From contig CALBRH010000055.1 in NCBI GenBank assembly GCA_937899865.1, positions 21,356 through 85,355 on the forward strand: DNA of 64,000 bases, written 5' to 3'. This document shows positions 27,740 to 47,500 of the stretch, piece by piece. The position numbers were made by a program, and so were the translations under genes. The notes below the pieces were generated by a model. That model worked only from the letters and a program-made list of their open reading frames with translations. It had not been told where the DNA came from and did not search any database. Numbering within the stretch: the stretch's first letter is position 1; the number at the start of each line of letters is the position of its first letter. This DNA is from an uncultured euryarchaeote (lineage in GTDB: Archaea > Thermoplasmatota > Poseidoniia > Poseidoniales > Poseidoniaceae).

Positions 27740-30700
27740 TCAGACTGGTTGGTTCCAAGTTAGACCAGTGTAGGTCTTCAAGACAGCACCTTGTGTATCT
27801 CCACTTGGTGAGTAGACGATCCTAACAGTTGCATCAACTAGTTTGTGACCATCAGCAGTTTGAGTCTTGACGTAGATGTCATCTCCTGTACTAAAGGAAG
27901 AGATTGTCTCATCTTCATCAATTGTAACTACATCACCAAAGGTTACCAAAGAATCGCTGTTGAACGGAGAGAATCCGTAAACATGGTCTGTGGAAGCAAG
28001 GTTAGTTGTTTCTGAAACTATCTGACCACTTGCATCTTCATAGATTACTGTTACTTCAACAGCTTGTGTTGCCAATACAGTTTGTGCTTGACCAACGGTA
28101 ATCTTCCAGTGATCTGTTGCAGCACTACCTGTATCAACATTCTCAGCTGAGAAAGTCACTCTTGGTACACCCTTAGTATCTGTGTCAGCAAGTTGAGCTG
28201 CCCAAACATATACAACACCGGATAGAACAACAGTGATCGCAACCATCAAGATAGTTGCAATAACTGGGCTCACAGCAGCATCATCATCTGAAATTTGCTT
28301 CTCAACAAATTCTTCTTCATCATCATCTCTGCGTCCAGCAAGGACAAGAGCGCTAACAAACAAGCCAGTTAGAGCAACTGCAATGATACTTGGTGCGAAT
28401 GAAGCAACTGATAGAGCACCGATTGTTGTCACCGTAACTGGTAGAGCAACATCAGCAGTTTGCCAGTCTTCAGCAAATGCGCCATTGTATCCTTGTTCTG
28501 TGTGTTGACATGCGGAAGATTCACTCCATGCAACTTCATTACCGCCGTTAGTAGACATCATGTTGTTACACCAGTTCTTATCTTCAAATGCTGGTCTTCT
28601 GTTAGATTGTTGACCATTAGCATCTTCACCGATTCTACCAGGTTCAGACCACTTTCCGAATACTTGATTGCTTGAAACAGCATTGTGTGATTCAGGGTTG
28701 TCAGTTTGAACTTCGTTAACAGTACAGAGATCAGCTGCATTTGGAGTACAGGTAACTACATCAACTTCTACCCAAACCTCAGTGGTCATGTCAGTGATGT
28801 AAACTTCCCAGTTCTCAATATCCAGTGATTCACCGAATGCAGGTGGTGTGAAGTATTGTGGTAGTTCAATCTCAGTGTGTCCGTCAGAATGCAGAGATAC
28901 AACCAATAGATGATCGTATGTGTAGTCACCGTTGTCGCCACCAGCATAGATGCTGAAGTCAACAGGTACATATGTTCCAGGCATTACATTATTGACGCCG
29001 TTGAAGTCAAATCCTTCATTCTCGTCAAGGTAGTAATCTGGTACATTCTCAGCAACGTTGTCAACTTCTACAGACAGAGTTACTGATACAGACTCTTGTT
29101 GGTAGTTGTTTGGCGCATAGCCTTGTTGTTCTAACAATTCGTAGTTAGGCATGTAGCTTGGTGGATTCTCAGAATCTAATAGTGTCAATGTCATCTCACA
29201 ACGTCCGTTAGCTGTTCTTGTTTGATGAATACCGTTGTTGTTCAGCATATCAACTTCCCAAGGTTCAGCATTTGTTGTAGCGTCCTTAATCAGAGTGAAT
29301 TCTAGAATATCACCATTGATTTGAGTTGTGTAGTAGTTAGATGAATCACAGGTATTAGTATCTTCTAGAGTCCATGACAGGTCTGCATCTAGATGGTCGA
29401 TATCGGACTTAATGCTAGATAGATCGAAAGTCAATGCATTTGCATCTATTGTATCCTCTACAAGGTCTAATCTGTAGTCGCTAGTTCCTGGAACACCCTG
29501 GAAAGAGTTGCTACCATCTGCGGAGTCAACAACTCCTTCAGAAGCGATTACTGGCACATCATTAACTGGTGCAACAGCGAACTGTACTACTACAGGTGTT
29601 GCATCGGTATTTTCAGCACCATCATCAGATAGTGTTAGTGTAATGTCACAAACACCACCATATTCCCAATTGGTGTTCTCAGTAATGACAATCTCATCGA
29701 CTCCATTGACATTGGTCTGTAGAGCAACACTGATTTGATCACAAGTAGCAGTAGCGCCCCATGTGTAAACTTGGTTTACAGGGTATTGCTCATTTGCCAT
29801 ATCTCTGATAAACGAATTCATTGTATCGTTAGCAAGTTTACCTAGAGGCTTACTGTAACTTGCGAATCCTTCGTCTCTAGAGTTGTATCTTTCACCAGCA
29901 GCATCAACGTATAGATATAAATCGCCGTTGTCACAATCTGGGTCTACAGAAGTTCTAGCATCACAGATTACAGGTGCATCGTTGATATTCTTTACAGTGT
30001 AAGTAATTGTCTTTGCTGCAGTCTGTCCGTGAGTGTCGACAACTTCGAAAGTCAAATCAAATGTACCGAATTGGTCATTGATCGGAGTTAACGATAGTGT
30101 TCCTGTTGTACCAGATACGTCGCTAAAGTCTGTCAGTATGTTTGCAAATGCATCCATATTGCTTTCAGTGACTTCCCATTCCATGTCTTCTTCAACATCT
30201 TGCTCATCATCAACAAATGTCGACAAGTCAAGGTCAAGTTGTGCAGAGTCTTCGCTAACCAATATGTCATCAAGCGCAGAGGTAATCTCTGGACATGCTC
30301 TGAGGATGTTAAAGGATAGAGAAGTGGTTGAATCCATTACAACATTTGCTTCAGTATGCCAATCATAGTCACATGTATGTCTGATTTCAGCAGGTGTCTT
30401 AGCCATGATATTATAGTTGTGAGGTGTAGTAGGTGGGTTGCCAAACTCGAATGAACGATGAAGTAGAACTTCATTAGTCATTGTACCGTCAGATAGATCT
30501 AACTTGTTAAGAGCTAATTCGTATGCACTATCAAAGGTTTCAGCACCGGTTCCAACAATTGTACCTTGGTCTGGGCTTGCTGAGTTAACATTATCAGTTC
30601 CAGCATCTTGAATCGATGCTACGATATTCATTGCATCAACAGAACCACCAATTGAAGCGAGTGGTACACTAACTTCTAGATATTGTCCTTGAGCAGATAC

Positions 30701-33700
30701 TGCACTTGCACCTGGGTCTAATACCCAATTAGGAGCATTGTAGTAGTAGACATCCACGCCAGCAGAAGTCACGACAATTGCGAAGTCTGCATCATATGGT
30801 AGAGTGTGTACATTATTGTATCCGGTTGAACTACCAGCCATATCATTGCTGTCTACATAAACGTAGACATCGCTTGCAGATGTGTCAACACTGTCAAATC
30901 CTAAGACAAGTGAACCCGAATCTGTTGTCACATACATTGGTCCACCAACAAGACCTGGCATAGCATAGCCAGATGGATTTAGAGCATTGCCACCAACCCA
31001 ATCATCACTATTACCATCTACAACCATTGTTGTAGTGAAAGTTGGTGATGAATAAGCCGAGTAATCTTCATCCGAGACGATTGATAAACCAACTTGTGCA
31101 GTTGGTTCGCCGCCAAGGTGATCTGCATCGATATTCAACCAGTTTGCCTCATCAACAATTGATGTTGCATCTGTTGAAACCTTAGCCGCATCAAGAGCCC
31201 AATCAATAACTGTCAATCGAGTATTGTCACGCGCATCAATCCAAGTGGTTGAACTTGCTGATTTTGCTGCAGATGCAGGACTGCTTGAACCGCCGGCAGG
31301 ATCTGTTAATGATTGTACAGTTCCCTTGACATTTTCAGCAATCATGATAGTATCAGCGTCAGCCTGACCAGCATCCCATAGAACTTCTGAATTCTTGGCA
31401 TGGAAACCAACATTGCCAGTTACATCCATTGGATATAGCCAAGCATAGTTGCTGTCCTCAACCATCAAACCAGTTCCAGTAGAGCCACCATCGAAAGTAG
31501 CACCGATTACTGAAACTTCAATGTCTTCGGTGTGAACACCAATTCCATTGTCACCAGCAGTGAAGGAAGCATCGCCAGTAATTGTCAAAATACCGCCACC
31601 TGTCTTGTGGATACCAGTCTCGAATCCAGACATAGTTGTACCATCAAGGTTTATGTCGAAGCCGAATGTATTATCATCATCAAATCCAACTGAACCAGAC
31701 TGATCGCTACCAGTAATGACTGAGTTTTTATCATTCCAAATACATCCATCATTAACAATTGCATTCTGTCCGATGTTGATTGTGTTCGCTTCGGTAAGAA
31801 CCGCATACGACGAAACATCACAATTGGACAGTTGTATTCCAACTCCAAGCGGATTATTGTTTACGCTATCAAAGGTAATGGTATTATCCTTAATTGTTGG
31901 ACCAACCCATGAGTTATCCTCTGGCATGGCTTCTTGCCATTGTAGAGCAGCTTCTCCACAGTAAGAACCACAGAATAGTCTAAATCTCATTTCATATCCT
32001 GGATCAAGAGTGACCTTGAGTACATCACTCTCTTGTCCAGAAGTAAATGGTATAGATGGATAAGCAGAGCTTATACAGTTGATTCTACCAGCCCATGTAC
32101 CAAATGGTCCACCATAGTTGGTACTACTTGGCGCAGGTGCACCAGTAGTTGTTACCGCCCATGTACCTGCTGGTGCTACTTGCATACCTATGTTGGTATT
32201 ACAGTTAGAACCAAATCCGTCACCATATTGGTCAATTCCAACAAAGTCATATGTTACTGGATCGTTACCTAGATTCTGTAGTAGTACTCCGTCCATAGTG
32301 TTAGAGTACGCTGTTGGGTAGTATGGGTTAGACGAATATCCGAGGTAAGGACCACGGTATCCTGGTCGAGTGTTCTGTATTCCAGCAACTCCAGGATCCC
32401 AGTAGTACATTGGGTTTGTATTAGGTCCAGAAGAAGTAGAAGCCCATGTTCCAGTTTCACCTTGAACAATTTCGAATCCTCCACCGTTTGGACCATCACC
32501 ATATGTGTCTAACAGATAGAACACGTATGTTCCTACTTGGTCCAAAACAATGTTTGGATTTCCGCTGTTCCAAGATTCTTCACCATCTTGTCCGAAGTTA
32601 CCTGTTGCAGGATCCCAAACAGTCACAGTATTATCAGGTGCTGTGATGTAAACTCTCAATTCAGAGGCCCATGTACCTGCGATTAAGCGAATAATCATTT
32701 CTTGTCCTACATCGTTTGTTGCATAAACGTCAGGAGAGACACAGGATCTCCACCATGTAGGGAATGGACATGGATCACCAAATCCACCCCACTGTACGAA
32801 TTGACCTGGAACGTTAGGGAAATCAGTGTTCACACCAGCAACAACTTCAGTCACGAATTCAGTAGGTTTGGTTAACGAATCAGCAAGGATAGCATATTGA
32901 CCTGGGTCAGTAATATCGTTACCTTCAACATTGAAATCACCGCCAACAGCACTTATTGCAAAGTCTGATTGGTAATTGAAGTCATTATCGTTGATGTTCA
33001 CTCTTTGAACTCCATCAGTACTTACACCATATGCTCCACCATTGAATACGTTGGAGTCAATTAGAGCATTGAAAGATGTGTCGTCTTGGAATCTAACGTG
33101 TGAACAAGTTGAACATGTCATTACGTTGTTAGATAATACCATACCATTGGTATCAGAATCAGCCCATCCCATGACATTTAGTCCTACAGTATCTACGAAA
33201 GTATTGCCATCGATAACAACATTGTTAGAACCAACAACTGTGTGAGCTGTTGATGATGTTCCATCATAGTATGAATCAATGAATGCTACACTCAGTACAC
33301 AATTTGCGAATGTATTACCAGAAATTGTCGCTGAATCTATACCACCAAGTCTCAAACAGTAGTCAGCATCTGAGAATAATGTAGGAGTAATTCCTAGATC
33401 TCTGTAGTAATAGATGAAGCTGTTCTTAACCTCGACAGTTGAAGGCACGTAAGTATTGAATGAACCGAAACTGGAGGAGTCTCTGTCACCAGTACCAGTT
33501 GCAAGACCGATGATGTTGTTGAAAGTTACACCATCAATGTCAAGATTCAACGGGTTCTCATTGGTTCCTTGTAGACCACCAATTACCAGACCAACAACAT
33601 CACCATTTGCAGTCTTAGGGTAAAGTCCGTTGACTTCACCACCATGCATCTTTAGTGTTGTTCCGTATGGGTAATCAGAAATCCATTGTGCGATTCCAGT

Positions 33701-36700
33701 TCCATATTCAGTAGTATAACCAGTATCGAAAACAATTGCGTTATCCAATGTGTATGTTACACCATCTCTTAGTTCTAGAGTACCTGAGTCGATCATAATG
33801 GCTTTTCCAGACAAGTCCATGGAGGAAGTTCCATCCCACAAACCTTCGTCATCGCCATATTCTACCATTCCTGTATCATAGGTTCTCGATCCGGATGCTG
33901 AGAAAGATGTTCCTGCACACGGTGAAACCATGACATAGTTTGAATCTGTACCACATACTCTCACATCAATTTGATCAGTTAAACTGTATTGATCGAAATT
34001 TGTCGCAGTAGCCGAATCATATGGTGCGTCTGCCAAGTTAGGCGTTGCTTGTAAGTAACGGAAATCTCCAGAGTTAGTAGTCGAGTCAGTCCATGAATAA
34101 TCAACTTCTGCTACGCTTGAAATTTTGTATGTGCTGAAGTAGGCAGAGTAATCTGTCACTCCGCTTGCATCAACATCATAGATCGAGAATGACAATCCGG
34201 ATGTTAATCCGTTTGCATCTGTAGATCCTGTTGAAGTTGTAGCAGCAGCTTGGCTAGACATCACAACATTGGCATCAGCTAGAGGTGTTCCGTCAGCATC
34301 AAGTTCGGCGAAATAACTTCTATCTCTGTTGAACTTTCCTGTTGAACTTGAACCTATAGTAACTTTACTTTGGTCAACTATACCATCTAAGAACGAGACA
34401 GCGCTTGAATCAGCAATTTCAACATCTACTGTATTACTTCCAACAATGTCTACATCGTTCATGGATATATCTCCAACTCCCTCAAAGGACATTGCGGTAT
34501 TGACGTTAGAAATTGACATTGTGTCAACCATGTGGTTAGCGCTACTTTGAGATCCAACTCTAAATCCAACATTACCGTTGGAAATAGTTGCGTCAGCTAC
34601 AAGAGTTTCAACATCATTGTTTAGATATATGGCAGTACCCAATCCATTAAAGTTAGAATTGGTTATTTCTTGAATTCCTGCACTTGTAGATGGTGCATAG
34701 AATCCATAGTTGTTGTTTGCTCCTAATCCAGAGTCATCTACATCCATATTATCCAAATAAACGCTGTTTGTACCAGATGTTCTAACACCGTATTGAACAG
34801 GGTCATCGATATCTAGACCGTTGATGTTGGCTAAAGTTCCACCTTGTAGATCAATTCCTACGTTTGCATCAGTAATTTGTGCGTTATTCAAGATAACACC
34901 CTTTCCAATTACTGCTTCGGAATAATCTCCAAATGCTGCTGGGTTGGAACCAGATCTTGTAAGCAGTTCTACACTATCTCTGTTCATGTTTGCCCAGTGA
35001 CCAAGCGAACTACCGAGGTATCTGTGCATCATGTCGAATTTCAACTCGACCTTCGCAATCGAGGAATCTGTCAAATCAATAGTTGGCCAACTCAAAAGCA
35101 TGTTCGAACCAATGGTTGTTCTGAAGGTAGGAGACCTTGCATTACATGCTTCATAGTTTGGTGAACCCCATGTTCCAGCCAAACTAGAGCGTGTTTCACC
35201 AATTGTTGTGTCATGCCAGTTTCCAAGGTTGGAAATAATGGTTGAATAACCGAATGCACCACCTGTTCCCATTCCGTAGCGTCCAGTAATTGGGTCATCG
35301 AATCCCCAGTTAAATTCTGGGTAAGAAGATACACTGATTGGTTCAGGAACGGTTCCTTCAGAAATTCTAAATCCGAATTGTTCAGGATATAATGGAGATG
35401 TAGTTACTCCATACAAGTCTCCAATGTTAGGAGTACTAGAGTACCAATAGTAGTTGTCTAGGCGCTCTCCCCATCTCCATGGATTTGGTGATTCTCCACC
35501 ATAGTTACAATCCCAGAATGGCGCACCACCGGCTCCTCCAAGGTAGCTTAATCCACCGTTAGTTACGGCAGGATCATTTTGGCTGTATGGATAATATCCT
35601 ACATCGTTTTCGTCTTGAATTAGGTATGATGCTCCAGAGTTATCAGTTACTTCAATTACTAAGTTGTCCATTGTCACATATGGTACGGACCAAGATGTTA
35701 CACCATAGCCACCTACAGTATATCTGTATGTGTATGTACCACCGTAATTAATCATCATTGCAGGTTGTAGATAATCTGCTTGCCCAACCCAACTGGTTAG
35801 ATCAACTGTGTATTCTTCCCACTCGAAACAGCCGAATCTGTGGAAGAACCAACAGTTATCCATGTTTGGAAGTTCTCTTGCATTAAAACCAGTTCCAATG
35901 TTGGATGGGTAATTTTGTGCAAGGCCTTGTAATACCGCACTTGAATACATAGTTGGTAGTTTAGGACCATCTTTTGCGACAATTCCATTAGTATTTCCGT
36001 TTGATGTGTAGCCATCTAGATTCATTGAACCGCCGTCGGAGTTAATTCCTACAGCCATGTTGGATATAGTTAAACCGTCACCAACAACTTCACCACCATT
36101 GGTAAGTTCAATACCTACACCTAGGTTTGATGAACCTGCTAAAGTGGCAGCAGAGGAAACTGTTACCAATCCACCATCGACATCAATCATTGGGTAAGAG
36201 TTTGAAGCAACTGCAGTAGCAGTCAAATATGCTCCTCCACCGAGTTTTAGTTCTGCGCCGCTTGGAACTTCCAATTGTCCGCTCTTTGAAGAATCGAACA
36301 ATAGGTTACTAATGGTACCAGATTGCATATCCAAAACACCGCCGGATTCAATCGCAAGGTCAACTGCATTTAGTAAACCTTCACCGTAAATCTTTGGTAT
36401 GTCACCAGTTCCTGTATCGGTCATCATAATCAATTTACCACCATTACCAATAGTCAAAGTTGGATTGTCTAGTGCATCCTCTCTAAATGTAATTTGTGAA
36501 CCTTCAAGTACAACAGTACATCCATCGATTAGCAAGTCATCTGCGAGCACCATTGTAGCACCCTTGAACTCGTAAGTACCATCACCATCTGGATCTGTAT
36601 TGAGGAAGGTTTCGTTAGTTGCCATCCACGCACAGTCCATGAAACTGACATTGTCAAGTGTCACAGGAGGTGAAACAAGTCTAATGTCAGCATAACTTCC

Positions 36701-39700
36701 GATTGTGTAAGTACCAAAGTCAGCCAATGGAACTCCAGTTTGTAGAACTCCATCTTCGAATAGAACTTCAGTAGCAGGGGTACCATCAACCAATGCTGGA
36801 TTAGCCTGGCCTGCTCCAGCAGACCCACTAGCTCGTACGACATGAGTGTTGTAAGTTGTTGGCGTGTGATCTCCAGTAATTACTGCAACATCGCTCGCTC
36901 TTCCATCGTTTCCAGTTGTTGCTCTGTGAATTACCTTGTTCGGGAACAATTCAGCGCCGGTTGAGTCAAGAACAGATGCAGTAATAGTAACTCCTGCCTC
37001 TGGTATTTGTTCTGGAAGGCCTGTATTAGCGTCAACTCCCAATCTGTAGGCAAGTGAATTGGCAAATCCACCATAATAGACTTCTGGGATTGCAGTAGGT
37101 TGAACATTGGTATTGCCGTCAATTGATGTGTGACAATCTGTAGTCTTTCCATTGGAATCTGCACAATCATTACCATTCAAAGTAACATCGATTAAGAATC
37201 CATCAGAAGATAGACCGCCAAAATACAGATATGGACCAAATTCAGATACTGTTGTACTGGTCACATCTACATCAACAAAGATACCTTCTGTTGCATGCAT
37301 GTAAATTGCTGAGTCAGAACTACTGTGAGACATTGTAGATGATACCATCTGAATAGTACTCGTACCTCCAGGTGTGTTACATTCTGAACTGAGTTGTCCA
37401 AGTGCTGAGTTAACAATCTTAATGTTTGCACCACAGCCGAATGATCTGTACAGCCCAACATCCATGTTAGTGAACTCTAACATATCATTTGAACCACCAG
37501 TAACACCAAGTTCTTGAATTGAGAATTCATTAGCGACGGTGATTTGATCAGCTGTTCCAGGGAAAGTCCTGTACATTGTCATATCAGGTGCTGTAACTCC
37601 GTCAAATACTGAGTTAGCACCCATTGAACCTGGTACGTTGGTTGTAGCACCACAATATGGATTGATATCGAATCGATGTTGTCCGGTAGGCATGAAACCT
37701 GTACCAAGGTCGACATTGGTCAATGAAACCTTACTTGCTGCGCAAATCCAACCTTGTGCATAGTTTGGTGCGTTGAAGTTAGTTACTGTAACCTCGGAAT
37801 TAGCGCCATGACTCAAACCAAGGCTTACACCAGTGTTTTCCCAAGTCCAACCATTGTTATTCCATCTCCATTGGTCGTTAATGGTAGGCGTAGTTGCAGT
37901 TACATCACTAATAGTAATGGTTTGAAGATCTGTTCGAATTAGCGTAACCTTAGAGTCTACAATGTTTACATACTCCATGGTCAAAGAACCAGAATTACTT
38001 CCTGAAACATCAGATGCGATAGCACCTGCCCAATCGTAATTGTTGGTGTTACATCGAGTCATAGTAGATGGGTTGCCTGCTGTACCTGTTAGTGTAGCAA
38101 CTGTGTTTTGAGCAAAGTTGAAACAAGAACTTCTTGAGTCAGTAATTGCGAAGTTAGACATTGTAACAACTGTTCCTTGTCCGCTACCATGAGCGAATGC
38201 AGAATCTACATTTGAGTAAGATACATCAGATAGAGTAAATTCTCCTACGTCACAATCTTGGGTAGCAGTTCCACATCCTTGGAAACTTGAATCAGCTGGT
38301 CTACTACCTGCAGTTATTGCCGCATGGTTAGTATTGCTGATAGAAACATGTTGCATTACATGTCTGTCTTCAACAGTTGTACCTGCACAGTCACTAGTAA
38401 ATGCCAATCCATGCCATAGAGCATTTGAATTGACACTTCTGTCTGCGTTAAAGGTGATTGGGTCAGTCGAAGTTCCCATTGCTGTGAACTTTGAACATGT
38501 ACCGTCAGCCTTGACGCCACCATCGAATGAGATACCTTTGTTCTCTCCGATAATAACTTCAACGCCTGGTTCAATTGTCAAGTCAGCATCAATACTTAGG
38601 TAACCGCTTGGATCTGATGGGTTAACCTTAATCGGGCTATCGATTAGATACCATGTAGTATCATCTGTAATATCTGCAGTAACTGTCTTACCTTGGCCAT
38701 CGAATGGAAGTGTTCTGAACCATACACCTTGACAGGATGTAGTGCCAGTTGAGCCACAATAGTCAACTGTTTCACGTGACCAATATGGTGCCATCATGTG
38801 CAATTTACCGCTTAGGACGTTGTTTGCGCCGCCACAGGTAGTCCAGAAGTTTGCACGGAATGCACCTGATGTTGGCCAGCATCCTGTAGAGGAAGATGAA
38901 CTTTCGATTCTAATGGTGTTTGTACTACCATCATCAACAAAGTGCAAGAATCCGCTTCCAGTTGCTTGGATTCTGTTAAGAGGATCGCTACCGTCATAAG
39001 ACTGGCCATAGAACTCAAAGTTAAAGTCGTCTGGTATGTCAAAGTTTCCTGCACAGTATACGCCATATTGACTCCAATCAGAGTTTGAGTCACATCTGTC
39101 GTCATTACTGAATGTGAATGAACTTACAGGCACGGTCTGAGTCGATGATACAAGAGGTAGTGGAGTCATTCCAAGTTCGAATGTTTCTACAAGATAGTCT
39201 CCAGTATCAGACAGAGTAAATCTCAAGTTGTTAGTATGAGGGTTTCCGTAAACAAAGTAGTCCCAATTGCCAACTTCCATGAAGTTGCTTCGGTCTTCTC
39301 TGATAGCAGTGACGCCTACCTTCTCATTGTTGTAACAGTCCTCGTCATAATGGAACTCAAACTCATTGGTAACATCATACATGATAACTTGCATGCTACA
39401 TCCGTCATTGTTAGATGTGTAAGAATTCTCTTTGTACTCAACCCATTCAACAATCAATGTGTTGGTAGGATTAGCAACTTCAAAGGTGTAAGTGTCGCCT
39501 TGCATAGAGTTAGCAGGAGGCGCTTGTGGGCTTGGTTGAATGTCTCTTGTTGTCATGTGATAGGAAACGGTATCTCCTCTGGTTAATCCAGTGAATTGAT
39601 AAGTCCATTCACACTCTGAGTAAGTACAGATATTTCTCTTATCCGCATCAGTCTCATAGATGAAAGATGTTGTACCATCTGAGGTTGGAACCAAAGCAGC

Positions 39701-42700
39701 ATCACCAGTTGAGGTTACGACGCCCTGGTCGGAGGTAATTGTATAGTGAATAGTCGGTCCAACATTTGGTACAGGACTGGTATCTACACCTTGATCTGCA
39801 TATCGGTTATCGGAAATTGTATAGGTCACAGTTCTATCAAGAGCATGTGAATCGCCAATTTGTCCACCAGTAACCAATGGTGCGGAACTATCTGGATCTG
39901 GTTCTACATTTCTAATCTGCCAAAGCAGACCGTCGTCACGTATGTCTTCTCCAGTCTTGGTAGCACCTATTGCAAATCCTTGCCAGCTACCGCCTGCACT
40001 TGTTTCAGTTGCATCAGGTGTACAATCTGATGAAGTTTCCATGAACATAACGTGCCCTGCTGTTGTTAAACAGATCTTACTGAATTCCCCAGTTCCGGTA
40101 CCGAATGGCACTCCACCAAATCCTGTGTTTGTTCCAAGTGATGGTGTATTTGAATCTGCTAGGTCAATCACGAATGATTCAGCAGTGTAGCCATCAGTGT
40201 ACAAAGAGTTGATGTCGTAAGGAGTGACAGCGCCAGATGGCCATGCATTTCCAGTGTATGACTCTACTGTCAACTTTGTGTCAGTATAATCTCCATATCC
40301 TGGATCGGTAGTAATGAAGTCCCAAGTACCTGCACCCAAGATTCCACCGTTAGGAATGTCGTGTAAGTTTTGGTTCATCGTGTTGGAAACGTGAATCGAG
40401 TTCGATGATAAGGAACCAAATGTGTAACCCATATTGTAGGAATCAGTACCTCCATGAGGTACATTGGTTATTTCCATGTTTTGTTCGTAACACCAACTGT
40501 AACATTGGTAGATAACTCTCGCAACATCTCCTTGAGGAACTGTGACTGTTGCCATTGTTGTTGGCAAGCTATAGTCCCTATTTCGGCCCGAGTCAGCGTA
40601 TAGAGTGTTGATTGTAATCTGCGGTGTAAACATGTTAGGTGTGTAGGCTTCTGCAACTACATCCGGCAAACTGGCATCAAGTCTGTTATCGATGTTATCG
40701 GAGCGTAAGACAATCGAAGAACCTGTTGCTGCAATAGCCCATTCATTGCTATTAGAATCGTAAACCATCATGAAATTTTGAGTTCCGTATCGACTGATAT
40801 CGAGAATTCCTCCAAATGCAGAGTCGAGTTCAAGGGTGTTAGTTGGTGCGCCGGTACATCCAGTCGCTCCTGGGTTACAGTCGGTAGCGACTCCTTCCCA
40901 GTTGATATCCCAGTGACCCAAAGAATGATCGCCAGATGAATGGACATCGTCGTCCCAGAAACACGTATCGTCGATATTCCAAGATGATGTGTAGAATGAA
41001 CCACAGTCAGTAAAGTCAAATTCAAAGTAGAATTCTCCACTACCTGCATAGTAAGTTATCTGTCTATCAAATACATCTTGTGTCTCTTGGTATGAACCGC
41101 CTGGTTGATAATCTGGCCCTTTAACATCCTCGAATAAGGCTGTGAGTTTTTTGCTTGTAGCTTGGTAGACATCTTCAACGGTGAACGTCAAATCAGCAGC
41201 ACCAACTGCAGGGAAACGACCTGCATTTGGTGACTGTGGTGGAACCTTAGAGTTGTCTACTGCTGCAGCATCACTGAAAGTCCAATAATAATCTACAGTT
41301 GTTCCAGCATTTATGTCCCCGGTTGTTGCGGAGAAGGTACAAACTTGATTCTTGGTAGCACATGTAGTTAGCAATGTTGAGTCAACATCAGTATATGAGT
41401 TGCCGCCATCAGTGCTGTACCACAATTTTGGACCACCAACAGCAGTTGTATCTACTGGGTTTCTAGCATCCATGATTGATAGGAATAGAGTTCTTGAGCC
41501 TTCAACATATGATGTAACACCAGTGTAGTGTCCATCGTATTCAACTGTTGGTGCAACGTCATCTGGTGTGTTATCTTCAAGTTCTACAATTAGGTAGAAG
41601 TTGGAGAAATCTGCACCACCGTCCCAATTATTGGTGTTTGCACCGCCAATTGAGTTAAGGGCATTAGGGAATCCGACACCAAATTCGATGTAGCCGCCGT
41701 TTGCAGCATTATTGTATACGTCTGCAAACATTGCCATAGTTCCAGAAGAACATGCTGTAACACTGCCACAAATCGAAACTGTTTGAGGTGTGTTAAGACT
41801 TATGTCAATTGGCATTCTAGCTATCTGTTCAGAACTAATCAATGAGTTTAGTCTCTGAAGAGATGGTGATGCTAGAACAACACCTGATGAGCCACCGGCT
41901 GTATCGAATCTTACTTCTCCTCCGGAGCCTGGCCCAGAGCCATCTCCTGCAGTATCCCAAACCAATGCCTCATAGTTTCCAGGAGTTTGGATGAACACAC
42001 TGTCTTCAGAGGTATAATCGGTTGCAGCGGTACAAGGTGGTGTTGAAGCAGGGTTGAAACTGCATAAATCCCAGTAGTTAGTCCATCCAGTTGTACCAGC
42101 TTGGCGGTAGTAAATCTCTGTGTGATCTGCATCACCAGGATTAGAACCTGTCCTGTACATGAAATATGCTTCTTGTCCGGTCAGTACTGTGAAAGTTGTA
42201 TCTGCAGGTTCGCTACCTGTCGGTGAACCTCCTGCACCAGGACCTATTGCTGGAAGTACTGGAGGAGCAGGTGCTTGCTTTACAGTTGCGGAGTTTTCAC
42301 TTGGCCAGCAACCTGAGGTTGGACAGTTGTAAGCAATTCTCATCTCATCTCCAGCATTTACTGTGAAGTATCTTGGAACCTCATATCCGTCATCTTCAGC
42401 ATCGTGAGCAGCACCGGTAAAATCTCCAACGGTAACTAAGTCTGTCCATGCTGCATTAGATGCACCAATTGTTCTTGTTTGGAAATAAACTGCTGCGTTA
42501 GAGTTAAGTCCATCACCGTAAGAATCGGTTACGATGTATTCATAACTACCAGCATCAAAAATTCCATTGCTCTCAAACGATGATGATCCGCTAACGAAAT
42601 CAACTGAGCTTCCATCGCATGTAGTCATATCAGAGGTCATTGAATACTGATATTGATTGGTTCCGTAAATGTCGTTATCTGTTTGACAATCGGTATAGTC

Positions 42701-44284
42701 GCTGAAGCCACTAAACACGTGTTGTGCAGTAGATGGAGGTGTTGGTGGCATTTGATAATCTGGAAGTGGGTTTCCTGTACAATCACCTGGATTATACATG
42801 CCATTCAAGTCTGGATCTCCTGAACTACCAAGAGTAAGTGCATAGCCGCCACATTCTTCCATAATAATTAGACCACCATAGTCTCCGAAACCTGTGTAAC
42901 TGTACTTCCAATCTAGTTCATAGACTGCAGATACACTTCCAATTGGCAAGGTATTGACACCATGGTTGAAGGTAAAATCAAATGTTGGTGAAGACTGATG
43001 GTCTCCACCCCAACTTGGATAATCGTACAAAAATCGTGAATTCCTCGAAGAATGACAATCCTCTGCTCCAATATCACAGGTTTGGTAATTACCACCTGCA
43101 GAGTCAGTGTTGAGAGTGTTGGTACCAACTGATGGGTCGATAACTACTGGGAATGATGTGTAGTCATCTAGCAACCAATCGATGTTAACTGCGGTTGTGA
43201 TTGTTAATGTGTTAGCATCAAGAGTCATGAAATACTGAGTTGATGCTTCTAATTGTGCAAGTTTGTCTTCCTTATTGAGTTCTTCCTTAACGTTATTACT
43301 CTCTAGAGAACTATCATAGGCAAAAGGTGCCGCAATATAACCGATGACTAGTCCAGTATCGGCTTTGACGATATCGATTGCTGAATCGGTTACAAATACC
43401 TCGCCATCAGCAATAATTTGCTCACCATTGGACCATAGTTCAACATCATCAGGAAGGCCAACGGTCTCTTGCATTCCAAAGTAACCTTGGACTGAGTTAC
43501 CGTCAATCTCTCGGTAGGTCTCAAGTTCATTGACTAGGGTCGTTCTAACATCGTTTGATAGTTTGTTGATAACAAAATCTTGCTTGAGTTCATTTACGCT
43601 AACATGGTATTCCATGTCAATGTTAGCGCTCATTGGATAGTTGATGCTATTACCGCCGACCTTAACATGGTCGGTAGGAGGCATGAATACGCCATCTCTA
43701 ACTGGATTGATATTGGTATAAGGAACCATTATTCCATCAAGGAATGGGTCTGTACCAGTTCCCTGGAAGACTGTAACTGGAACAGGATTTAGACCTGTTA
43801 CAAGAACATCTTCACCAATTAGAATTTGTGCACCATCCATAGGATTGTGACTAAATTGTACTGGAGTGAAAATATCTTCAACGTAGTATCCATTTTCATT
43901 TGACAAAATGGTTGTATCTAAATCAATTAGTTCACCATATTGGTTTTCATAGTGTAATGGGTTGTACGAGTGAACCGATTGCAGGTTACCGTCATCATTG
44001 ATGAAGGTCTTACTGTGTGTCGTCCTCATTCCAATCATTTCTAGATCTTCATCAAAGCCAATTGATTCGGCTTCAAATGAAGTTTTTTCTATTTCAGCAT
44101 CGAAATCTCCGGTGCTGTCTGTGTTAACTTCTTGCGAATCAGCTGAATCTGAATCGATACTGTTGATATCTGAGTTGTTAACCATTGCCGCCCACGACAT
44201 TAGCACCATCAAAACACACAACAGCGAAGCAATTCCTATTCCGCCAAACACGCTTTTTACATTTCTATTTCTTAGTTCTTTCAT
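27740..44284 (-). CDS. Giant (5514 aa) acidic surface protein/adhesin with a C-terminal TM, internal class III signal and archaeal type IV pilin-like domain
   Basis: N-terminal signal/anchor; D/N/T/G-rich passenger with beta-helix-like, nidogen-like and cadherin-like (INDAPVI, VNDVPVI) segments; C-terminus ...FAPSIIAVALTGLFVSALVLAG-RRDDDEEE...DDDA-AVSPVIATILMVAITVVLSGVVYVWA-globular domain. Confidence 0.92.
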   Translation of the reverse strand: MKELRNRNVKSVFGGIGIASLLCVLMVLMSWAAMVNNSDINSIDSDSADSQEVNTDSTGDFDAEIEKTSFEAESIGFDEDLEMIGMRTTHSKTFINDDGNLQSVHSYNPLHYENQYGELIDLDTTILSNENGYYVEDIFTPVQFSHNPMDGAQILIGEDVLVTGLNPVPVTVFQGTGTDPFLDGIMVPYTNINPVRDGVFMPPTDHVKVGGNSINYPMSANIDMEYHVSVNELKQDFVINKLSNDVRTTLVNELETYREIDGNSVQGYFGMQETVGLPDDVELWSNGEQIIADGEVFVTDSAIDIVKADTGLVIGYIAAPFAYDSSLESNNVKEELNKEDKLAQLEASTQYFMTLDANTLTITTAVNIDWLLDDYTSFPVVIDPSVGTNTLNTDSAGGNYQTCDIGAEDCHSSRNSRFLYDYPSWGGDHQSSPTFDFTFNHGVNTLPIGSVSAVYELDWKYSYTGFGDYGGLIIMEECGGYALTLGSSGDPDLNGMYNPGDCTGNPLPDYQMPPTPPSTAQHVFSGFSDYTDCQTDNDIYGTNQYQYSMTSDMTTCDGSSVDFVSGSSSFESNGIFDAGSYEYIVTDSYGDGLNSNAAVYFQTRTIGASNAAWTDLVTVGDFTGAAHDAEDDGYEVPRYFTVNAGDEMRIAYNCPTSGCWPSENSATVKQAPAPPVLPAIGPGAGGSPTGSEPADTTFTVLTGQEAYFMYRTGSNPGDADHTEIYYRQAGTTGWTNYWDLCSFNPASTPPCTAATDYTSEDSVFIQTPGNYEALVWDTAGDGSGPGSGGEVRFDTAGGSSGVVLASPSLQRLNSLISSEQIARMPIDISLNTPQTVSICGSVTACSSGTMAMFADVYNNAANGGYIEFGVGFPNALNSIGGANTNNWDGGADFSNFYLIVELEDNTPDDVAPTVEYDGHYTGVTSYVEGSRTLFLSIMDARNPVDTTAVGGPKLWYSTDGGNSYTDVDSTLLTTCATKNQVCTFSATTGDINAGTTVDYYWTFSDAAAVDNSKVPPQSPNAGRFPAVGAADLTFTVEDVYQATSKKLTALFEDVKGPDYQPGGSYQETQDVFDRQITYYAGSGEFYFEFDFTDCGSFYTSSWNIDDTCFWDDDVHSSGDHSLGHWDINWEGVATDCNPGATGCTGAPTNTLELDSAFGGILDISRYGTQNFMMVYDSNSNEWAIAATGSSIVLRSDNIDNRLDASLPDVVAEAYTPNMFTPQITINTLYADSGRNRDYSLPTTMATVTVPQGDVARVIYQCYSWCYEQNMEITNVPHGGTDSYNMGYTFGSLSSNSIHVSNTMNQNLHDIPNGGILGAGTWDFITTDPGYGDYTDTKLTVESYTGNAWPSGAVTPYDINSLYTDGYTAESFVIDLADSNTPSLGTNTGFGGVPFGTGTGEFSKICLTTAGHVMFMETSSDCTPDATETSAGGSWQGFAIGATKTGEDIRDDGLLWQIRNVEPDPDSSAPLVTGGQIGDSHALDRTVTYTISDNRYADQGVDTSPVPNVGPTIHYTITSDQGVVTSTGDAALVPTSDGTTSFIYETDADKRNICTYSECEWTYQFTGLTRGDTVSYHMTTRDIQPSPQAPPANSMQGDTYTFEVANPTNTLIVEWVEYKENSYTSNNDGCSMQVIMYDVTNEFEFHYDEDCYNNEKVGVTAIREDRSNFMEVGNWDYFVYGNPHTNNLRFTLSDTGDYLVETFELGMTPLPLVSSTQTVPVSSFTFSNDDRCDSNSDWSQYGVYCAGNFDIPDDFNFEFYGQSYDGSDPLNRIQATGSGFLHFVDDGSTNTIRIESSSSSTGCWPTSGAFRANFWTTCGGANNVLSGKLHMMAPYWSRETVDYCGSTGTTSCQGVWFRTLPFDGQGKTVTADITDDTTWYLIDSPIKVNPSDPSGYLSIDADLTIEPGVEVIIGENKGISFDGGVKADGTCSKFTAMGTSTDPITFNADRSVNSNALWHGLAFTSDCAGTTVEDRHVMQHVSISNTNHAAITAGSRPADSSFQGCGTATQDCDVGEFTLSDVSYSNVDSAFAHGSGQGTVVTMSNFAITDSRSSCFNFAQNTVATLTGTAGNPSTMTRCNTNNYDWAGAIASDVSGSNSGSLTMEYVNIVDSKVTLIRTDLQTITISDVTATTPTINDQWRWNNNGWTWENTGVSLGLSHGANSEVTVTNFNAPNYAQGWICAASKVSLTNVDLGTGFMPTGQHRFDINPYCGATTNVPGSMGANSVFDGVTAPDMTMYRTFPGTADQITVANEFSIQELGVTGGSNDMLEFTNMDVGLYRSFGCGANIKIVNSALGQLSSECNTPGGTSTIQMVSSTMSHSSSDSAIYMHATEGIFVDVDVTSTTVSEFGPYLYFGGLSSDGFLIDVTLNGNDCADSNGKTTDCHTSIDGNTNVQPTAIPEVYYGGFANSLAYRLGVDANTGLPEQIPEAGVTITASVLDSTGAELFPNKVIHRATTGNDGRASDVAVITGDHTPTTYNTHVVRASGSAGAGQANPALVDGTPATEVLFEDGVLQTGVPLADFGTYTIGSYADIRLVSPPVTLDNVSFMDCAWMATNETFLNTDPDGDGTYEFKGATMVLADDLLIDGCTVVLEGSQITFREDALDNPTLTIGNGGKLIMMTDTGTGDIPKIYGEGLLNAVDLAIESGGVLDMQSGTISNLLFDSSKSGQLEVPSGAELKLGGGAYLTATAVASNSYPMIDVDGGLVTVSSAATLAGSSNLGVGIELTNGGEVVGDGLTISNMAVGINSDGGSMNLDGYTSNGNTNGIVAKDGPKLPTMYSSAVLQGLAQNYPSNIGTGFNARELPNMDNCWFFHRFGCFEWEEYTVDLTSWVGQADYLQPAMMINYGGTYTYRYTVGGYGVTSWSVPYVTMDNLVIEVTDNSGASYLIQDENDVGYYPYSQNDPAVTNGGLSYLGGAGGAPFWDCNYGGESPNPWRWGERLDNYYWYSSTPNIGDLYGVTTSPLYPEQFGFRISEGTVPEPISVSSYPEFNWGFDDPITGRYGMGTGGAFGYSTIISNLGNWHDTTIGETRSSLAGTWGSPNYEACNARSPTFRTTIGSNMLLSWPTIDLTDSSIAKVELKFDMMHRYLGSSLGHWANMNRDSVELLTRSGSNPAAFGDYSEAVIGKGVILNNAQITDANVGIDLQGGTLANINGLDIDDPVQYGVRTSGTNSVYLDNMDVDDSGLGANNNYGFYAPSTSAGIQEITNSNFNGLGTAIYLNNDVETLVADATISNGNVGFRVGSQSSANHMVDTMSISNVNTAMSFEGVGDISMNDVDIVGSNTVDVEIADSSAVSFLDGIVDQSKVTIGSSSTGKFNRDRSYFAELDADGTPLADANVVMSSQAAATTSTGSTDANGLTSGLSFSIYDVDASGVTDYSAYFSTYKISSVAEVDYSWTDSTTNSGDFRYLQATPNLADAPYDSATATNFDQYSLTDQIDVRVCGTDSNYVMVSPCAGTSFSASGSRTYDTGMVEYGDDEGLWDGTSSMDLSGKAIMIDSGTLELRDGVTYTLDNAIVFDTGYTTEYGTGIAQWISDYPYGTTLKMHGGEVNGLYPKTANGDVVGLVIGGLQGTNENPLNLDIDGVTFNNIIGLATGTGDRDSSSFGSFNTYVPSTVEVKNSFIYYYRDLGITPTLFSDADYCLRLGGIDSATISGNTFANCVLSVAFIDSYYDGTSSTAHTVVGSNNVVIDGNTFVDTVGLNVMGWADSDTNGMVLSNNVMTCSTCSHVRFQDDTSFNALIDSNVFNGGAYGVSTDGVQRVNINDNDFNYQSDFAISAVGGDFNVEGNDITDPGQYAILADSLTKPTEFVTEVVAGVNTDFPNVPGQFVQWGGFGDPCPFPTWWRSCVSPDVYATNDVGQEMIIRLIAGTWASELRVYITAPDNTVTVWDPATGNFGQDGEESWNSGNPNIVLDQVGTYVFYLLDTYGDGPNGGGFEIVQGETGTWASTSSGPNTNPMYYWDPGVAGIQNTRPGYRGPYLGYSSNPYYPTAYSNTMDGVLLQNLGNDPVTYDFVGIDQYGDGFGSNCNTNIGMQVAPAGTWAVTTTGAPAPSSTNYGGPFGTWAGRINCISSAYPSIPFTSGQESDVLKVTLDPGYEMRFRLFCGSYCGEAALQWQEAMPEDNSWVGPTIKDNTITFDSVNNNPLGVGIQLSNCDVSSYAVLTEANTINIGQNAIVNDGCIWNDKNSVITGSDQSGSVGFDDDNTFGFDINLDGTTMSGFETGIHKTGGGILTITGDASFTAGDNGIGVHTEDIEVSVIGATFDGGSTGTGLMVEDSNYAWLYPMDVTGNVGFHAKNSEVLWDAGQADADTIMIAENVKGTVQSLTDPAGGSSSPASAAKSASSTTWIDARDNTRLTVIDWALDAAKVSTDATSIVDEANWLNIDADHLGGEPTAQVGLSIVSDEDYSAYSSPTFTTTMVVDGNSDDWVGGNALNPSGYAMPGLVGGPMYVTTDSGSLVLGFDSVDTSASDVYVYVDSNDMAGSSTGYNNVHTLPYDADFAIVVTSAGVDVYYYNAPNWVLDPGASAVSAQGQYLEVSVPLASIGGSVDAMNIVASIQDAGTDNVNSASPDQGTIVGTGAETFDSAYELALNKLDLSDGTMTNEVLLHRSFEFGNPPTTPHNYNIMAKTPAEIRHTCDYDWHTEANVVMDSTTSLSFNILRACPEITSALDDILVSEDSAQLDLDLSTFVDDEQDVEEDMEWEVTESNMDAFANILTDFSDVSGTTGTLSLTPINDQFGTFDLTFEVVDTHGQTAAKTITYTVKNINDAPVICDARTSVDPDCDNGDLYLYVDAAGERYNSRDEGFASYSKPLGKLANDTMNSFIRDMANEQYPVNQVYTWGATATCDQISVALQTNVNGVDEIVITENTNWEYGGVCDITLTLSDDGAENTDATPVVVQFAVAPVNDVPVIASEGVVDSADGSNSFQGVPGTSDYRLDLVEDTIDANALTFDLSSIKSDIDHLDADLSWTLEDTNTCDSSNYYTTQINGDILEFTLIKDATTNAEPWEVDMLNNNGIHQTRTANGRCEMTLTLLDSENPPSYMPNYELLEQQGYAPNNYQQESVSVTLSVEVDNVAENVPDYYLDENEGFDFNGVNNVMPGTYVPVDFSIYAGGDNGDYTYDHLLVVSLHSDGHTEIELPQYFTPPAFGESLDIENWEVYITDMTTEVWVEVDVVTCTPNAADLCTVNEVQTDNPESHNAVSSNQVFGKWSEPGRIGEDANGQQSNRRPAFEDKNWCNNMMSTNGGNEVAWSESSACQHTEQGYNGAFAEDWQTADVALPVTVTTIGALSVASFAPSIIAVALTGLFVSALVLAGRRDDDEEEFVEKQISDDDAAVSPVIATILMVAITVVLSGVVYVWAAQLADTDTKGVPRVTFSAENVDTGSAATDHWKITVGQAQTVLATQAVEVTVIYEDASGQIVSETTNLASTDHVYGFSPFNSDSLVTFGDVVTIDEDETISSFSTGDDIYVKTQTADGHKLVDATVRIVYSPSGDTQGAVLKTYTGLTWNQPV

Positions 44285-44512: not shown

Positions 44513-47500
44513 TCAGTAGTCCCATTCCTTGTCGTCGTCTTCTTCACCTTCTCCACGAGATAGGATGAATGCTCCAACTACAAATGCAACTACTACTACT
44601 GCACCGATTACTCCCCATGTCCAGGTTGGGACACCAGAGGATGCTTCAGAATCAGTTGTTGTAGATCCATCATCAGGATTGGTATTGTCTTGAGCTCTAT
44701 CATACAGAATAGAATCTGTTGAAGGACCATATGCAATGTTCATTACAGCATCGTGTGGCACGACACCAAAGTGAACCTCAGTTGTCTCAACTGTAGTATA
44801 CTTTGCAATCGTTGCTTCTGTACCTTGCATTACCATAGCACATGCGTCTGCATCAATCATAACCTTCATTTCTGTAGCAGTAAACTCACCACGGTTGTAA
44901 CATACAATCCATCCAGCAACATCTTCATCGACTGCTGAAGGCTCCCAAGTAACTACCCAGTTTTCTCCAGATTCACTAATTGTAACATCATTTGCTGTAA
45001 CTGCTGCAACTGATGCATCAGATGTAACTGTTGCTGATACCGAATCTCCACAAGCATATTGGTTGCAAAGTTGTGCTGTAACAGAATATGCTTGTCCATC
45101 AGTTCCTGATGCCCATGTAACAGAACGTGTATCGGATTCGACTCTATCATAGGTGACATCTGGCGTTGAACCATCAGCCATTGTAACTTCGATTCTAACA
45201 TTCTCATTGCTTAGAAGAGCATCGTAATTGTATGCGATTACTATGTCTCCACCCTTAGCAGCGGATGCTGTAAGTTGAGTAATTGTACCAGCAGGCGGGT
45301 TTGGAGTTTCACAATCCTCAGCAATTAGATAGAAGTTTGTTCCAGCAGGAATCAAGTCTGAACCTGCAGGGAACGAGTAAGTGTAACCTGAAGTTGATGC
45401 ATCAACCTCTTCACCTGCGCCAGAAGCAACAGAAATTACAACATTACCAGCTTCCATCCACATGTGTTGAACTCCCAAGTCGTTAGGGAAATGGACGTGC
45501 ATGGTTTGCTCAACAACTGTTGAAGAATCGTAAGTTGTTGATGGATTTACAGTAACAGATCCAACTGGAGTTGGACTGTTTGCACAGGAATCAATTTCAA
45601 CTTGGTCAACAGGTCCGTCAGCAAATGTCACATCAAGTCCGCTTGCTCTAAGTTTAGCCGTGTAAACTGCATTGAAGCCATCAGCCAAACCTGTAGCCTG
45701 GAATGTCAAGTCCACCATAACATCAATAGAAATTGAAGCGTCTACGGTATTGTAGCTGTCGGTAACTTCCATTCTAACCTGGAAAGATGGAACCATTGTA
45801 TCGGTTGTAGTTACAGTACAGCTGCCATCTCCACCTGTATCAGCACATAATTCAGCGCCTGAACCATCATACCATGTGAATTCTAATTTGTCGCCTTCTA
45901 CATCAAATGCTTCACCAACAAATGTTACTGAATCGCCAACAACTACATCATTTCCTGTTGATTTTAGAGACAGAATATTAGGTGCGAAGTTATCAACGGT
46001 AACTCTGTAATCCCAATCGTTGTTAGATGGAACCATATCTGAAATCTTTGTATCTAGTGTAGATGAACCCTCATCATATTGTCCAACCATGTTAACTGTT
46101 GCTTCCACAACGTATTCGCCGACATCAAAATTGTGCGATGCACAAACAAAACCTACAGGATCTGCATCAGGTGTTTTGTCAGTAGCTACACCCAAATACT
46201 GATGGGTAGCATATTCCAAATCTTCACACTCTGTTGCTTCATAGGTTGTTGAGGTACCGGCGTCCAAATCTGTGACTGTGAATGTAACATTCCATTCATA
46301 GATAGGTGTTGATGATGAGGACGAGTGCATTACTACTGCGAACATATCATAATCGCCTGTTGAAAGAGTTTGAGAAATATCTTCTCCAATGTTTCCATAT
46401 CTGTCATCCAGAGTTTCTTCAGATTCTTCCTCATCTTCACCACCTTCTCCACCAACTACATGTGGTGCAAGATAGTAATCAAACAATGTAATGTCATGAA
46501 CTGTAGTTGCAGAACCGTAGATGGATCCCAGATTGTTACCCGAATACTCATCTTCAGCATCTGTACCTGCAATTGTTCTTTCACACATTACATCTCCGCC
46601 AGCACAAGAATCGCTTACCTCATACACAGTGTATGAAAGAATAGACACTGATACTGTGTAAGTACCATCTGAAGGCGGTGTTAAAGTCATAATTGACTCT
46701 CCTGTCAGCCTATTAGTTGAATTCAATACATCATCTGCACCTATAATCATTCTTGTACCTGTTGTTGTGACTCCATCTCCGTCATCGGTGATATCTACTG
46801 TCTTTTGGACACCTAAAATATCTGTAGCAGCATTACTGTTGAATACTAAACCACCTGTCACATCAACCTTGATTGTGGTGTTTCTAATTGTCATACCAGC
46901 CATTGAGCCTTCTAGGCTTACTGATACTTTGAAATCTACTGGGTCAGTTCCTTCAACGGAACCAAACACATCTTCACCATCAGAGTCTAACCAAGTCAAG
47001 CCAACCTGAATATCATGGTAGTCCTTAACTGATACTCTAAAAGAAATTTCATCGTTGCCAGGATCTCCAAGTACTTGAGAGGTTACTTTAACCTCAACGA
47101 AATACTTGCCTGCGAATGGAATCCACTCTATTACATTACCAGAAGATGTTACAAGGGTTGATTCTCCGTTTGAGTCTAAGTAATCGCCTGGTGCGATAAC
47201 TGAAGATTGACAAGAGTTAGGACAAACAGCGTTATCATTAGCCCATGACAAGTCATTGCCGTTAAGATCTTGGGCAACATCTCCTCGCTGTCCTTGATCA
47301 TCAATGTATACAGTAACTTGATATTGCATGTTGGTCAAATCAGCATCACCACTATTTCTCAAGTATGCCTTGAAATTTACTGGCTCTCCTGCTAACAATT
47401 CGTTAGTTGTGCCGCCACCTGTGGCGTAAATTGTCTCTCTAGGTGAAGTAACATATACAACTTCTGGGTCTGCGCCAGCCCTTGCACCTGTTTCTTCAAA

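Follow-up and report, generated by a model that had tools for sequence, protein, structure and literature searches.

A conserved C-terminal prepilin cassette on giant surface proteins of Marine Group II archaea

How a type IV pilin comes to lie at the far end of a giant surface protein, and whether it is ever cut loose from there, are questions raised by a 64,000-nucleotide stretch (hereafter the window) of contig CALBRH010000055.1 (assembly GCA_937899865.1, forward-strand positions 21,356 to 85,355). The source genome was assembled from a metagenome (65 contigs, 2.01 Mb, 91% complete) and belongs to the Poseidoniaceae (Marine Group IIa, MGIIa). A single open reading frame (ORF) encoding 5,514 amino acids plus stop, read from the window sequence, occupies 27740..44284 of the minus strand, and its last 230 residues are, judged by sequence comparison, a conserved C-terminal 'prepilin cassette' with a transmembrane (TM) helix, TM1, a short loop and a type IV pilin. 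Class III (prepilin) signals are defined by their N-terminal position. Here the signal does not stand behind a short leader but lies at residues 5337/5338 of 5,514 (here and below a slash marks the putative cut), after TM1 and a 20-residue loop. The sequence across the junction of loop and pilin is QISDDDAAVSPV (QISDDDAA, then VSPVIATIL...); after the loop comes VSPVIATILMVAITVVLSGVVYVWAA, with about 145 more residues to the C-terminus. A first-pass annotation of the same DNA had described the end of the ORF as TM1, a short charged loop and then the start of a pilin, and had proposed that a cut at 28274/28273 would yield a mature pilin of 177 residues starting at V5338; checked on the sequence, this layout, its coordinates, the proposed cut and the length of the product are all correct. 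The ectodomain of about 5,300 residues has no significant match in Pfam, and because of this the term 'adhesin' stays presumed.

The C-terminal module had been taken for a genuine prepilin of the Pilin_N type, and both its sequence and its modelled fold bear this out. Hidden Markov models (HMMs) of Pfam Pilin_N (PF07790) and TIGR02537 matched it at 34.1-35.9 bits (cut-off 25.2) and 35.9-40.1 bits (cut-off 20), respectively, and AlphaFold2, given an alignment of 31 diverse relatives, predicted a helix (5340-5370) followed by a beta-sandwich in which the predicted local distance difference test score (pLDDT) is 80-90. The top Foldseek match of this model was the Haloferax volcanii type IV pilus (8FJ5, E 4e-5), further matches (9MYG and 8REY among them) being archaellins, a Cuniculiplasma filament, Natrinema PilA1 and other archaeal pilins; the soluble domain of FlaF (4ZBH, 4P94) came slightly lower among the fold matches, with TM-scores by target of 0.54-0.57. 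Searching the last 315 residues with Arch_flagellin (PF01917, FlaF/FlaG) gave no match at E<=0.1. Public annotation of the giant homologues carries the labels 'type IV pilin' (NCBI) and 'flagellin-like' (JGI). As the alignments indicate, the module nevertheless departs from the family's defining N-terminal signal placement and, within the Poseidoniales, from the rule for the residue at -2.

The fusion is both real and ancient. In a search limited to proteins of 3,000-9,600 residues, 234 shared the same C-terminus, and the giant homologues are collinear orthologues with 23-58% identity across 78-100% of the ORF length. The order TM1, RR, acidic loop (19-21 residues), Ala and VSPVIATILMVAITVVLSGV was invariant in all of the approximately 80 distinct sequences examined, and hundreds of independently made assemblies, with identities as low as about 36%, join the parts in frame in this way. 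Of 151 Poseidoniales genomes sampled, 93 were found to carry the cassette (71 of 74 in family f1, both of the two in family f2 and 19 of 74 in family f3); in the same sample it was not found in seven small-genome genera. A contig binned as 'Verrucomicrobiales bacterium' (L085, NZEQ01000026.1) carries the cassette at 59% identity and is probably a misbinned Poseidoniales contig.

When 1.84 billion representatives were searched with HMMER using the pilin module alone, every hit at E<1e-20 was either C-terminal behind TM1 or a truncated call, and no convincing free-standing (split) form of the cassette pilin was found among the hits. Two candidates for such a form were rejected, as both look like truncated calls: the gene start of P0138 is inside TM1, and P0142 starts at a Met within the loop. 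P0133, from a lone 623-bp scaffold, has a canonical leader joined to a cassette-type head and may be a chimera across the shared helix. In-frame stops flagged in matches from genus g12 and from G083 ('1 TGA' / '1 TAG') proved to be the natural stop codons of slightly shorter proteins. The continuity of 28270-28420, on which the first-pass interpretation depended, is supported as well. The loop contains neither Met nor stop, no stop or frameshift splitting the pilin off was seen, and contigs from public sequencing runs, RNA libraries included, run across the junction with no indel. A metatranscriptome library supplied one of 520 nt, which spans 28183-28702 without mismatch; this shows presence in an RNA library and is not proof of transcription. 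The public runs were examined as contigs, from which transcript start, strand and level are not readable, and runs without cover around 28274-28480 carry no weight either way.

Nor is the cassette tied to one passenger. A survey for the same fusion on unrelated passengers had been suggested as a check, and two instances came to light. P0140 (2,785 aa, with beta-helix domains) shares only its last 560 or so residues with the window's giant protein. A profile search of 401 genomes of the phylum also gave TM1, loop and pilin matches in another Thermoplasmatota family (genomes of 3.1-4.4 Mb), whose large cassette proteins of 1,480-2,420 residues end in TPSFAP-TM, a basic loop, ...KKDEDG/VSPVIAIIL... 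and a 117-residue head. The loop of this second lineage is K/R-rich and, with D/E at -2 and G/A at -1, its class III site is fully canonical. Domains in the passengers are of the Kelch, BNR or Gly-rich type, and none of these passengers is similar to the giant protein of the Poseidoniales. About ten cassette proteins occur in one genome, five of them in tandem on G233:C26, and the prepilin ends at loci L115-L119 (G233:C26, C15, C37 and C2; G283:C9) are nearly identical. This use on unrelated proteins, around ten per genome, suggests that the cassette acts as a general-purpose C-terminal sorting module would, on a logic akin to that of LPXTG, PGF-CTERM or the type IX C-terminal domain (CTD), and that it could serve archaeal surface display.

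Comparison with the ordinary pilins of the source genome indicates that the helix of the cassette pilin is under purifying selection. Five other Pilin_N proteins are encoded there, all with the signal at the N-terminus. The helix AVSPVIATILMVAITVVL is identical, through the Ala at -1, in four of the five (the fifth, on C63, has diverged), and where a helix residue agrees with that of the cassette (17-25 positions in each of the five genes), 8-18 of the codons are different. Helix identity is therefore held by selection on the protein and not by recent gene conversion. The head motifs TVLATQA and YGFS.FN are invariant in cassettes and were not seen in the ordinary pilins of the source genome. 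A Lys directly after the helix (K5371, +34) is found in 82 of 82 distinct cassettes and in all three passenger classes, but is rare in ordinary N-terminal pilins. Ordinary modular pilins of 490-1,063 aa are encoded outside the window on G000:C28, C60 and C65, with repeat, FG-GAP-like or Cys-rich modules behind the pilin module; since these put the pilin module first, both orientations of pilin-adhesin fusion coexist in one genome.

Is the pilin then cut from its passenger? The N-terminal Sec-type signal, and TM1 followed by RR, would put the ectodomain outside, TM1 inward, the loop in the cytoplasm, the pilin helix back out through the membrane and the head outside, in agreement with the earlier argument that the site faces the cytoplasm. 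The site is retained in homologues: Ala at -1 is invariant in 82 of 82 distinct cassettes, with VSPVIATILMVAITVVLSGV directly after it, whereas neighbouring positions vary. Positions -3 and -4 are acidic, as in the ordinary leaders of the clade, which are 8-33 residues long. Cleavage is favoured by the inner-face position of the site, the invariant Ala, the acidic -3 and -4, the pilin-like constraint on the helix and the textbook site of the second lineage. Taking these together with the objections weighed below, we consider a class III cut in the window's protein to have about even odds.

The enzymes are at hand. The first-pass annotation had pointed to pibD and pilB/pilC as expected companions, and a FlaK-type class III peptidase and pilB/pilC-type genes are indeed present in the source genome. 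A FlaK-like protein of 331 residues matches Methanococcus maripaludis FlaK (3S0X, E=5.7e-7), with GGADAK aligned to the catalytic GGGDGK, and scores 31.3 bits with Pfam Arc_PepC_II (cut-off 29.9). PF01478 (Peptidase_A24) had no match in the source genome and only sub-threshold hits in relatives; it was through these hits that the peptidase was recovered, and it was then confirmed with 3S0X and Arc_PepC_II. Its gene, at G000:C47:16569-17561, is single-copy and present in 17 of 22 sampled genera. Outside the window, the source genome further has an archaellum operon and two more ATPase/TadC loci. The genera with Pilin_N pilins are exactly the 15 with the cassette, a genome usually having three (two small ones and the giant protein), and these 15 also have close orthologues of the 412-residue ATPase of the C63 locus (72-98% identity, best E<1e-200). 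In g10 and g22 the peptidase and another ATPase paralogue have been kept, and the pilins, the cassette and the C63-type ATPase are missing (only paralogue-level hits at E ~1e-48).

Complex prediction supports the idea that, with the loop cut or intact, the pilin head holds on to the base of the giant protein it belongs to. The juxtamembrane ectodomain (5088-5295) was modelled against the pilin head (5364-5514) with 29 relatives for each, and three runs gave interface scores (ipSAE) of 0.82, 0.83 and 0.00, against a best value of 0.04 among three controls. Among solved complexes 58 of 80 attained the mark used for ipSAE, as did 2 of 110 mismatched pairs; this calibration holds only roughly for our own alignments. 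Partner pLDDT was at least 72, and agreement between runs was reported in at least 0% of contacts. In the predicted interface a strand (VTVTTIGALS) and a segment (NGVNNVMPGTY) of the ectodomain meet the head motifs TVLATQA and YGFS.FN; the interface motifs LATQA and VYGF.P.N are cassette-specific and invariant. Given the predicted docking and the sortase-like look of TM1 described below, a TM-anchored adhesin and a freed pilin may not be the whole picture.

Taken together, these observations indicate that the cassette probably couples a giant Sec-exported surface protein physically to the Pilin_N-type type IV pilus system. As to how it does so, the reading we find best, at a probability of roughly 0.4, is a class III peptidase cut that leaves the giant protein with a docked adaptor pilin. 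The cut, at A5337/V5338, would fall to the single FlaK-like class III signal peptidase and would free the pilin N-terminus needed for filament assembly; the 177-aa pilin would serve as a one-per-adhesin adaptor (minor) pilin, clamped non-covalently to the giant protein; and dedicated ATPase/TadC machinery would handle it together with the two small pilins. What we infer here is the topology, together with cleavage, docking and filament entry.

Several points weigh against this reading. The residue at -2 is Ala in the window's protein and uncharged (A/M/S/T) in about 90% of Poseidoniales cassettes, whereas in about 75% of the ordinary pilins of the clade it is E/K/D. A register shifted by one residue (D-A/A-V) suits the window's protein but fails in about half of the orthologues. 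We know of no described class III signal that lies behind a TM helix and thousands of residues. The absence of a clear split form fits a need for a lasting covalent link equally well, one of the three complex runs scored 0.00, and the phyletic co-occurrences rest on few independent events, the genera being related. Even with the loop cut, the giant protein would stay anchored in the membrane by TM1, and the docked-adaptor reading does not account for how the pair would reach a filament. Finally, according to a review, archaeal prepilin peptidases depend critically on a charged residue at -2 and need G/A/S at -1 (PMC4371748). The polyprotein proposed in the first-pass annotation thus fares well as regards the pilin module, the topology, the peptidase and the recurring fusion, and poorly as regards the uncharged -2, which goes against the stated archaeal rule; this reading and the alternative of an uncleaved tether, offered alongside it, both stand.

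The main rival, which we rate only a little below the docked-adaptor reading, is that nothing is cut. TM1, the loop and the pilin helix would form a two-helix membrane hairpin that anchors the protein, and the head would be a static FlaF/FlaG-like brace at its base; while never polymerised itself, such a unit might also be in contact with pooled pilins, with the assembly platform or with the pilus base. The systematically uncharged -2 of the Poseidoniales, unlike that of the clade's ordinary pilins, could reflect selection against cutting, and an anchor would also agree with a fusion that is never clearly split, with the FlaF soluble domain among the structural matches, with the good conservation of TM1 itself and with the predicted intramolecular docking, which suits a fixed structural unit. 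A plain anchor, however, has no obvious need of an invariant Ala at -1 or of a helix kept pilin-identical by purifying selection, and the conserved 20-residue loop is longer than a hairpin requires. The fully canonical site of the second lineage and the lack of an Arch_flagellin (FlaF/G) HMM match also speak against it.

A third explanation starts from TM1, which has the tripartite look of a sortase-type signal: P[SG]F[AV]P[SG], some 22 hydrophobic residues and RR or KK. As a member of the PGF-CTERM family it was rejected, since PGF_CTERM (TIGR04126) gave no match for the window's protein, P0101 or P0027 and only 7.7 bits for P0140 (cut-off 24.5), and since TM1 is not at the extreme C-terminus, 197 residues following it. 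At least five proteins encoded outside the window (on G000:C3, C14, C15, C33 and C58) end in TPGF, a TM helix and a basic tail; two of these tails were tested against PGF_CTERM and reached 37.8 and 23.1 bits, the second of these below the cut-off. Marine Group II therefore appears to use ArtA-type anchoring. A 1,184-aa surface protein at G000:C51:58233-61784 has SFSPA-TM-RRR followed by an 85-residue tail and no pilin, a likeness of motif that may be due to chance.

A search for archaeosortases with PF09721 returned nothing in the source genome but was a poor probe, its control having missed Haloferax. TIGR04178 identified two in the source genome: ArtA (G000:C51:143514-144443; TIGR04125, 94.4 bits), present in 21 of 22 genera, and a second archaeosortase-family protein (G000:C11:20551-21510, equivalent to L123:1195-2154), which scores 32.5 bits with TIGR04178 (cut-off 23) and falls below every named subfamily cut-off. 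This second protein is encoded in single copy and shares the genus distribution of the cassette (15 of 22 Poseidoniales genera). Across the phylum sample, 11 of 38 f3 genomes have it, and the 11 listed are the 11 listed for the cassette profile; beyond the Poseidoniales there were weak paralogue-level matches only. The TM1 signal and the co-distributed second archaeosortase offer a lead for double processing, in which the archaeosortase would sort at TM1 and the class III peptidase would cut the loop, so that TM1 and loop are excised and the giant protein is lipid-anchored or passed to another acceptor. We regard this as improbable, although the tripartite signal is kept on three unrelated passenger classes (as TPGF in P0140), the source genome has ArtA and true TPGF-CTERM proteins, and the second archaeosortase follows the cassette more closely than does ArtA (15 versus 21 of 22 genera). 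The signal is not C-terminal, the defining place of all known sortase-type signals; TM1 fails the PGF_CTERM model with which the TPGF tails of the same genome were scored; and in the window's protein the motif reads ASF, not PSF. The phyletic match, moreover, stems from few independent losses, common to many pilus genes, and outside the Poseidoniales the enzyme has only the weak matches just mentioned.

More daring, and to our mind a slim chance, is a 'cut and re-hang' device, in which the class III peptidase frees the pilin and the second archaeosortase cuts at SFAPS and transfers the giant protein onto K5371 of the docked pilin, TM1 and the loop being discarded. K5371 would lie at the same membrane-surface level as SFAPS and be the acceptor. 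If true, this would be a type IV pilin with a covalently attached 5,300-residue adhesin despite its free N-terminus. Last, an artefact, that is, a surface-protein gene and a downstream prepilin gene joined by assembly or sequencing error, or else a recent functionless fusion, might be suspected from the 65 contigs of the metagenome-assembled genome, from a loop that could pass for an acidic tail joined to a pilin leader (a TM helix and an acidic tail also end the adjacent 1,026-aa protein) and from the one 623-bp scaffold on which a canonical leader precedes a cassette-type head, but is in practice refuted by the homologues with their invariant junction, the 93 of 151 genomes, the loop free of Met and stop, the bridging contigs without indels and the natural nature of the g12 stops.

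Streptococcus sanguinis PilB/PilC and PilY1 with its minor pilins are modular pilin or tip-adhesin sets. The cassette resembles these in that a pilin module presents a large adhesion module, but in modular type IV pilins the pilin module comes first with the passenger on its C-terminus, or the adhesin is separate, whereas the order in the cassette is reversed and the passenger sits on the side that the class III peptidase would remove. Archaeal DUF2341 proteins are predicted to be a set of the modular-pilin type (PMC4858521). With Haloferax volcanii PilA1-6 (Pilin_N/DUF1628; 8FJ5) the module shares its domain family, the ...A/VSPVI... site, a conserved helix common to several paralogues and the arrangement of helix plus beta-sandwich (PMC4371748); in PilA1-6, however, the signal is N-terminal with a leader of about 10-20 residues and a charged -2, while the cassette site lies 5,337 residues in, behind a TM helix, with an uncharged -2. 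The literature that could be searched, two censuses of archaeal type IV filament systems among it (PMC4858521, PMC13705601), yielded no description of the cassette architecture, and nothing relevant came from work on Marine Group II pilins, adhesion and giant proteins or on prepilin peptidase polyproteins. The PGF-CTERM/archaeosortase A system of the Haloferax S-layer glycoprotein is similar in its short Pro-x-Phe-type motif, TM helix and basic residues, and ArtA and TPGF tails are present in the genome; it differs in that TIGR04126 misses TM1 and that 197 residues come after TM1 in the cassette protein. FlaF/FlaG (ArlF/ArlG) of the archaellum likewise have an uncut pilin-like N-terminal helix and an envelope-protein-binding beta-sandwich, and the FlaF domain is among the fold matches, but they have neither an intact class III site nor a pilin-identical helix, and the cassette has no Arch_flagellin HMM match.

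Marine Group II archaea are among the commonest archaea of the surface ocean and have not yet been cultured. An internal class III signal kept for so long behind a membrane anchor would be a new way of making or loading a pilin. It would also give a concrete, testable mechanism for the attachment of Marine Group II to particles and algae, which is tied to carbon turnover in the surface ocean. The features of the giant protein are collected in Table 1.

Table 1. Positions of features of the giant protein in the window, with the basis of each assignment
Feature	Window position	Strand	Basis or remark
Whole ORF: giant surface protein with C-terminal prepilin cassette	27740..44284	-	Collinear orthologues
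N-terminal Sec-type signal or anchor, residues 1-34: basic n-region, ~24 hydrophobic residues, SWA/A	44183..44284	-	Read directly from sequence
Ectodomain segment 5095-5107 (NGVNNVMPGTY.P), predicted pilin-head contact	28964..29002	-	Complex-prediction interface; residues near-invariant in alignment
Juxtamembrane strand 5283-5293 (VTVTTIGALSV), predicted dock for pilin head	28406..28438	-	Predicted interface; conserved; family consensus LPxVVxTIGA
SFAPS motif 5295-5299, outer edge of TM1	28388..28402	-	P[SG]F[AV]P[SG] in relatives, TPGF in P0140
TM1 FAPSIIAVALTGLFVSALVLAG, residues 5296-5317, then RR	28334..28399	-	Sequence; AlphaFold2 helix at low confidence
Loop RRDDDEEEFVEKQISDDDAA, residues 5318-5337, predicted cytoplasmic: RR and acidic run	28274..28333	-	-1 Ala invariant, -2 Ala, -3/-4 Asp
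Class III signal H-domain and pilin alpha-1 helix, V5338-T5370	28175..28273	-	Putative cut 28274/28273; begins VSPVIATILMVAITVVLSGVVYVWA
Lys5371 (+34)	28172..28174	-	Conserved in 82/82 distinct cassette pilins, rare in ordinary pilins
Pilin beta-sandwich head 5372-5514	27743..28171	-	Cassette-specific motifs LATQA and VYGFxPxNS

Directly upstream of the giant gene, also on the minus strand, lies the gene for a 1,026-aa PKD-like surface protein with a TM helix and acidic tail at its end (44513-47593). Further upstream on the same strand are genes for a 1,529-aa FtsX/MacB-type permease (47852-52441), whose extracytoplasmic part is very large, and for an ATP-binding cassette (ABC) ATPase (52471-53169). 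The order ABC, FtsX, surface protein (~1,040 aa), giant protein, HAD, PolD small subunit and CinA is kept in a Poseidonia genome (L027) at about 51% identity.

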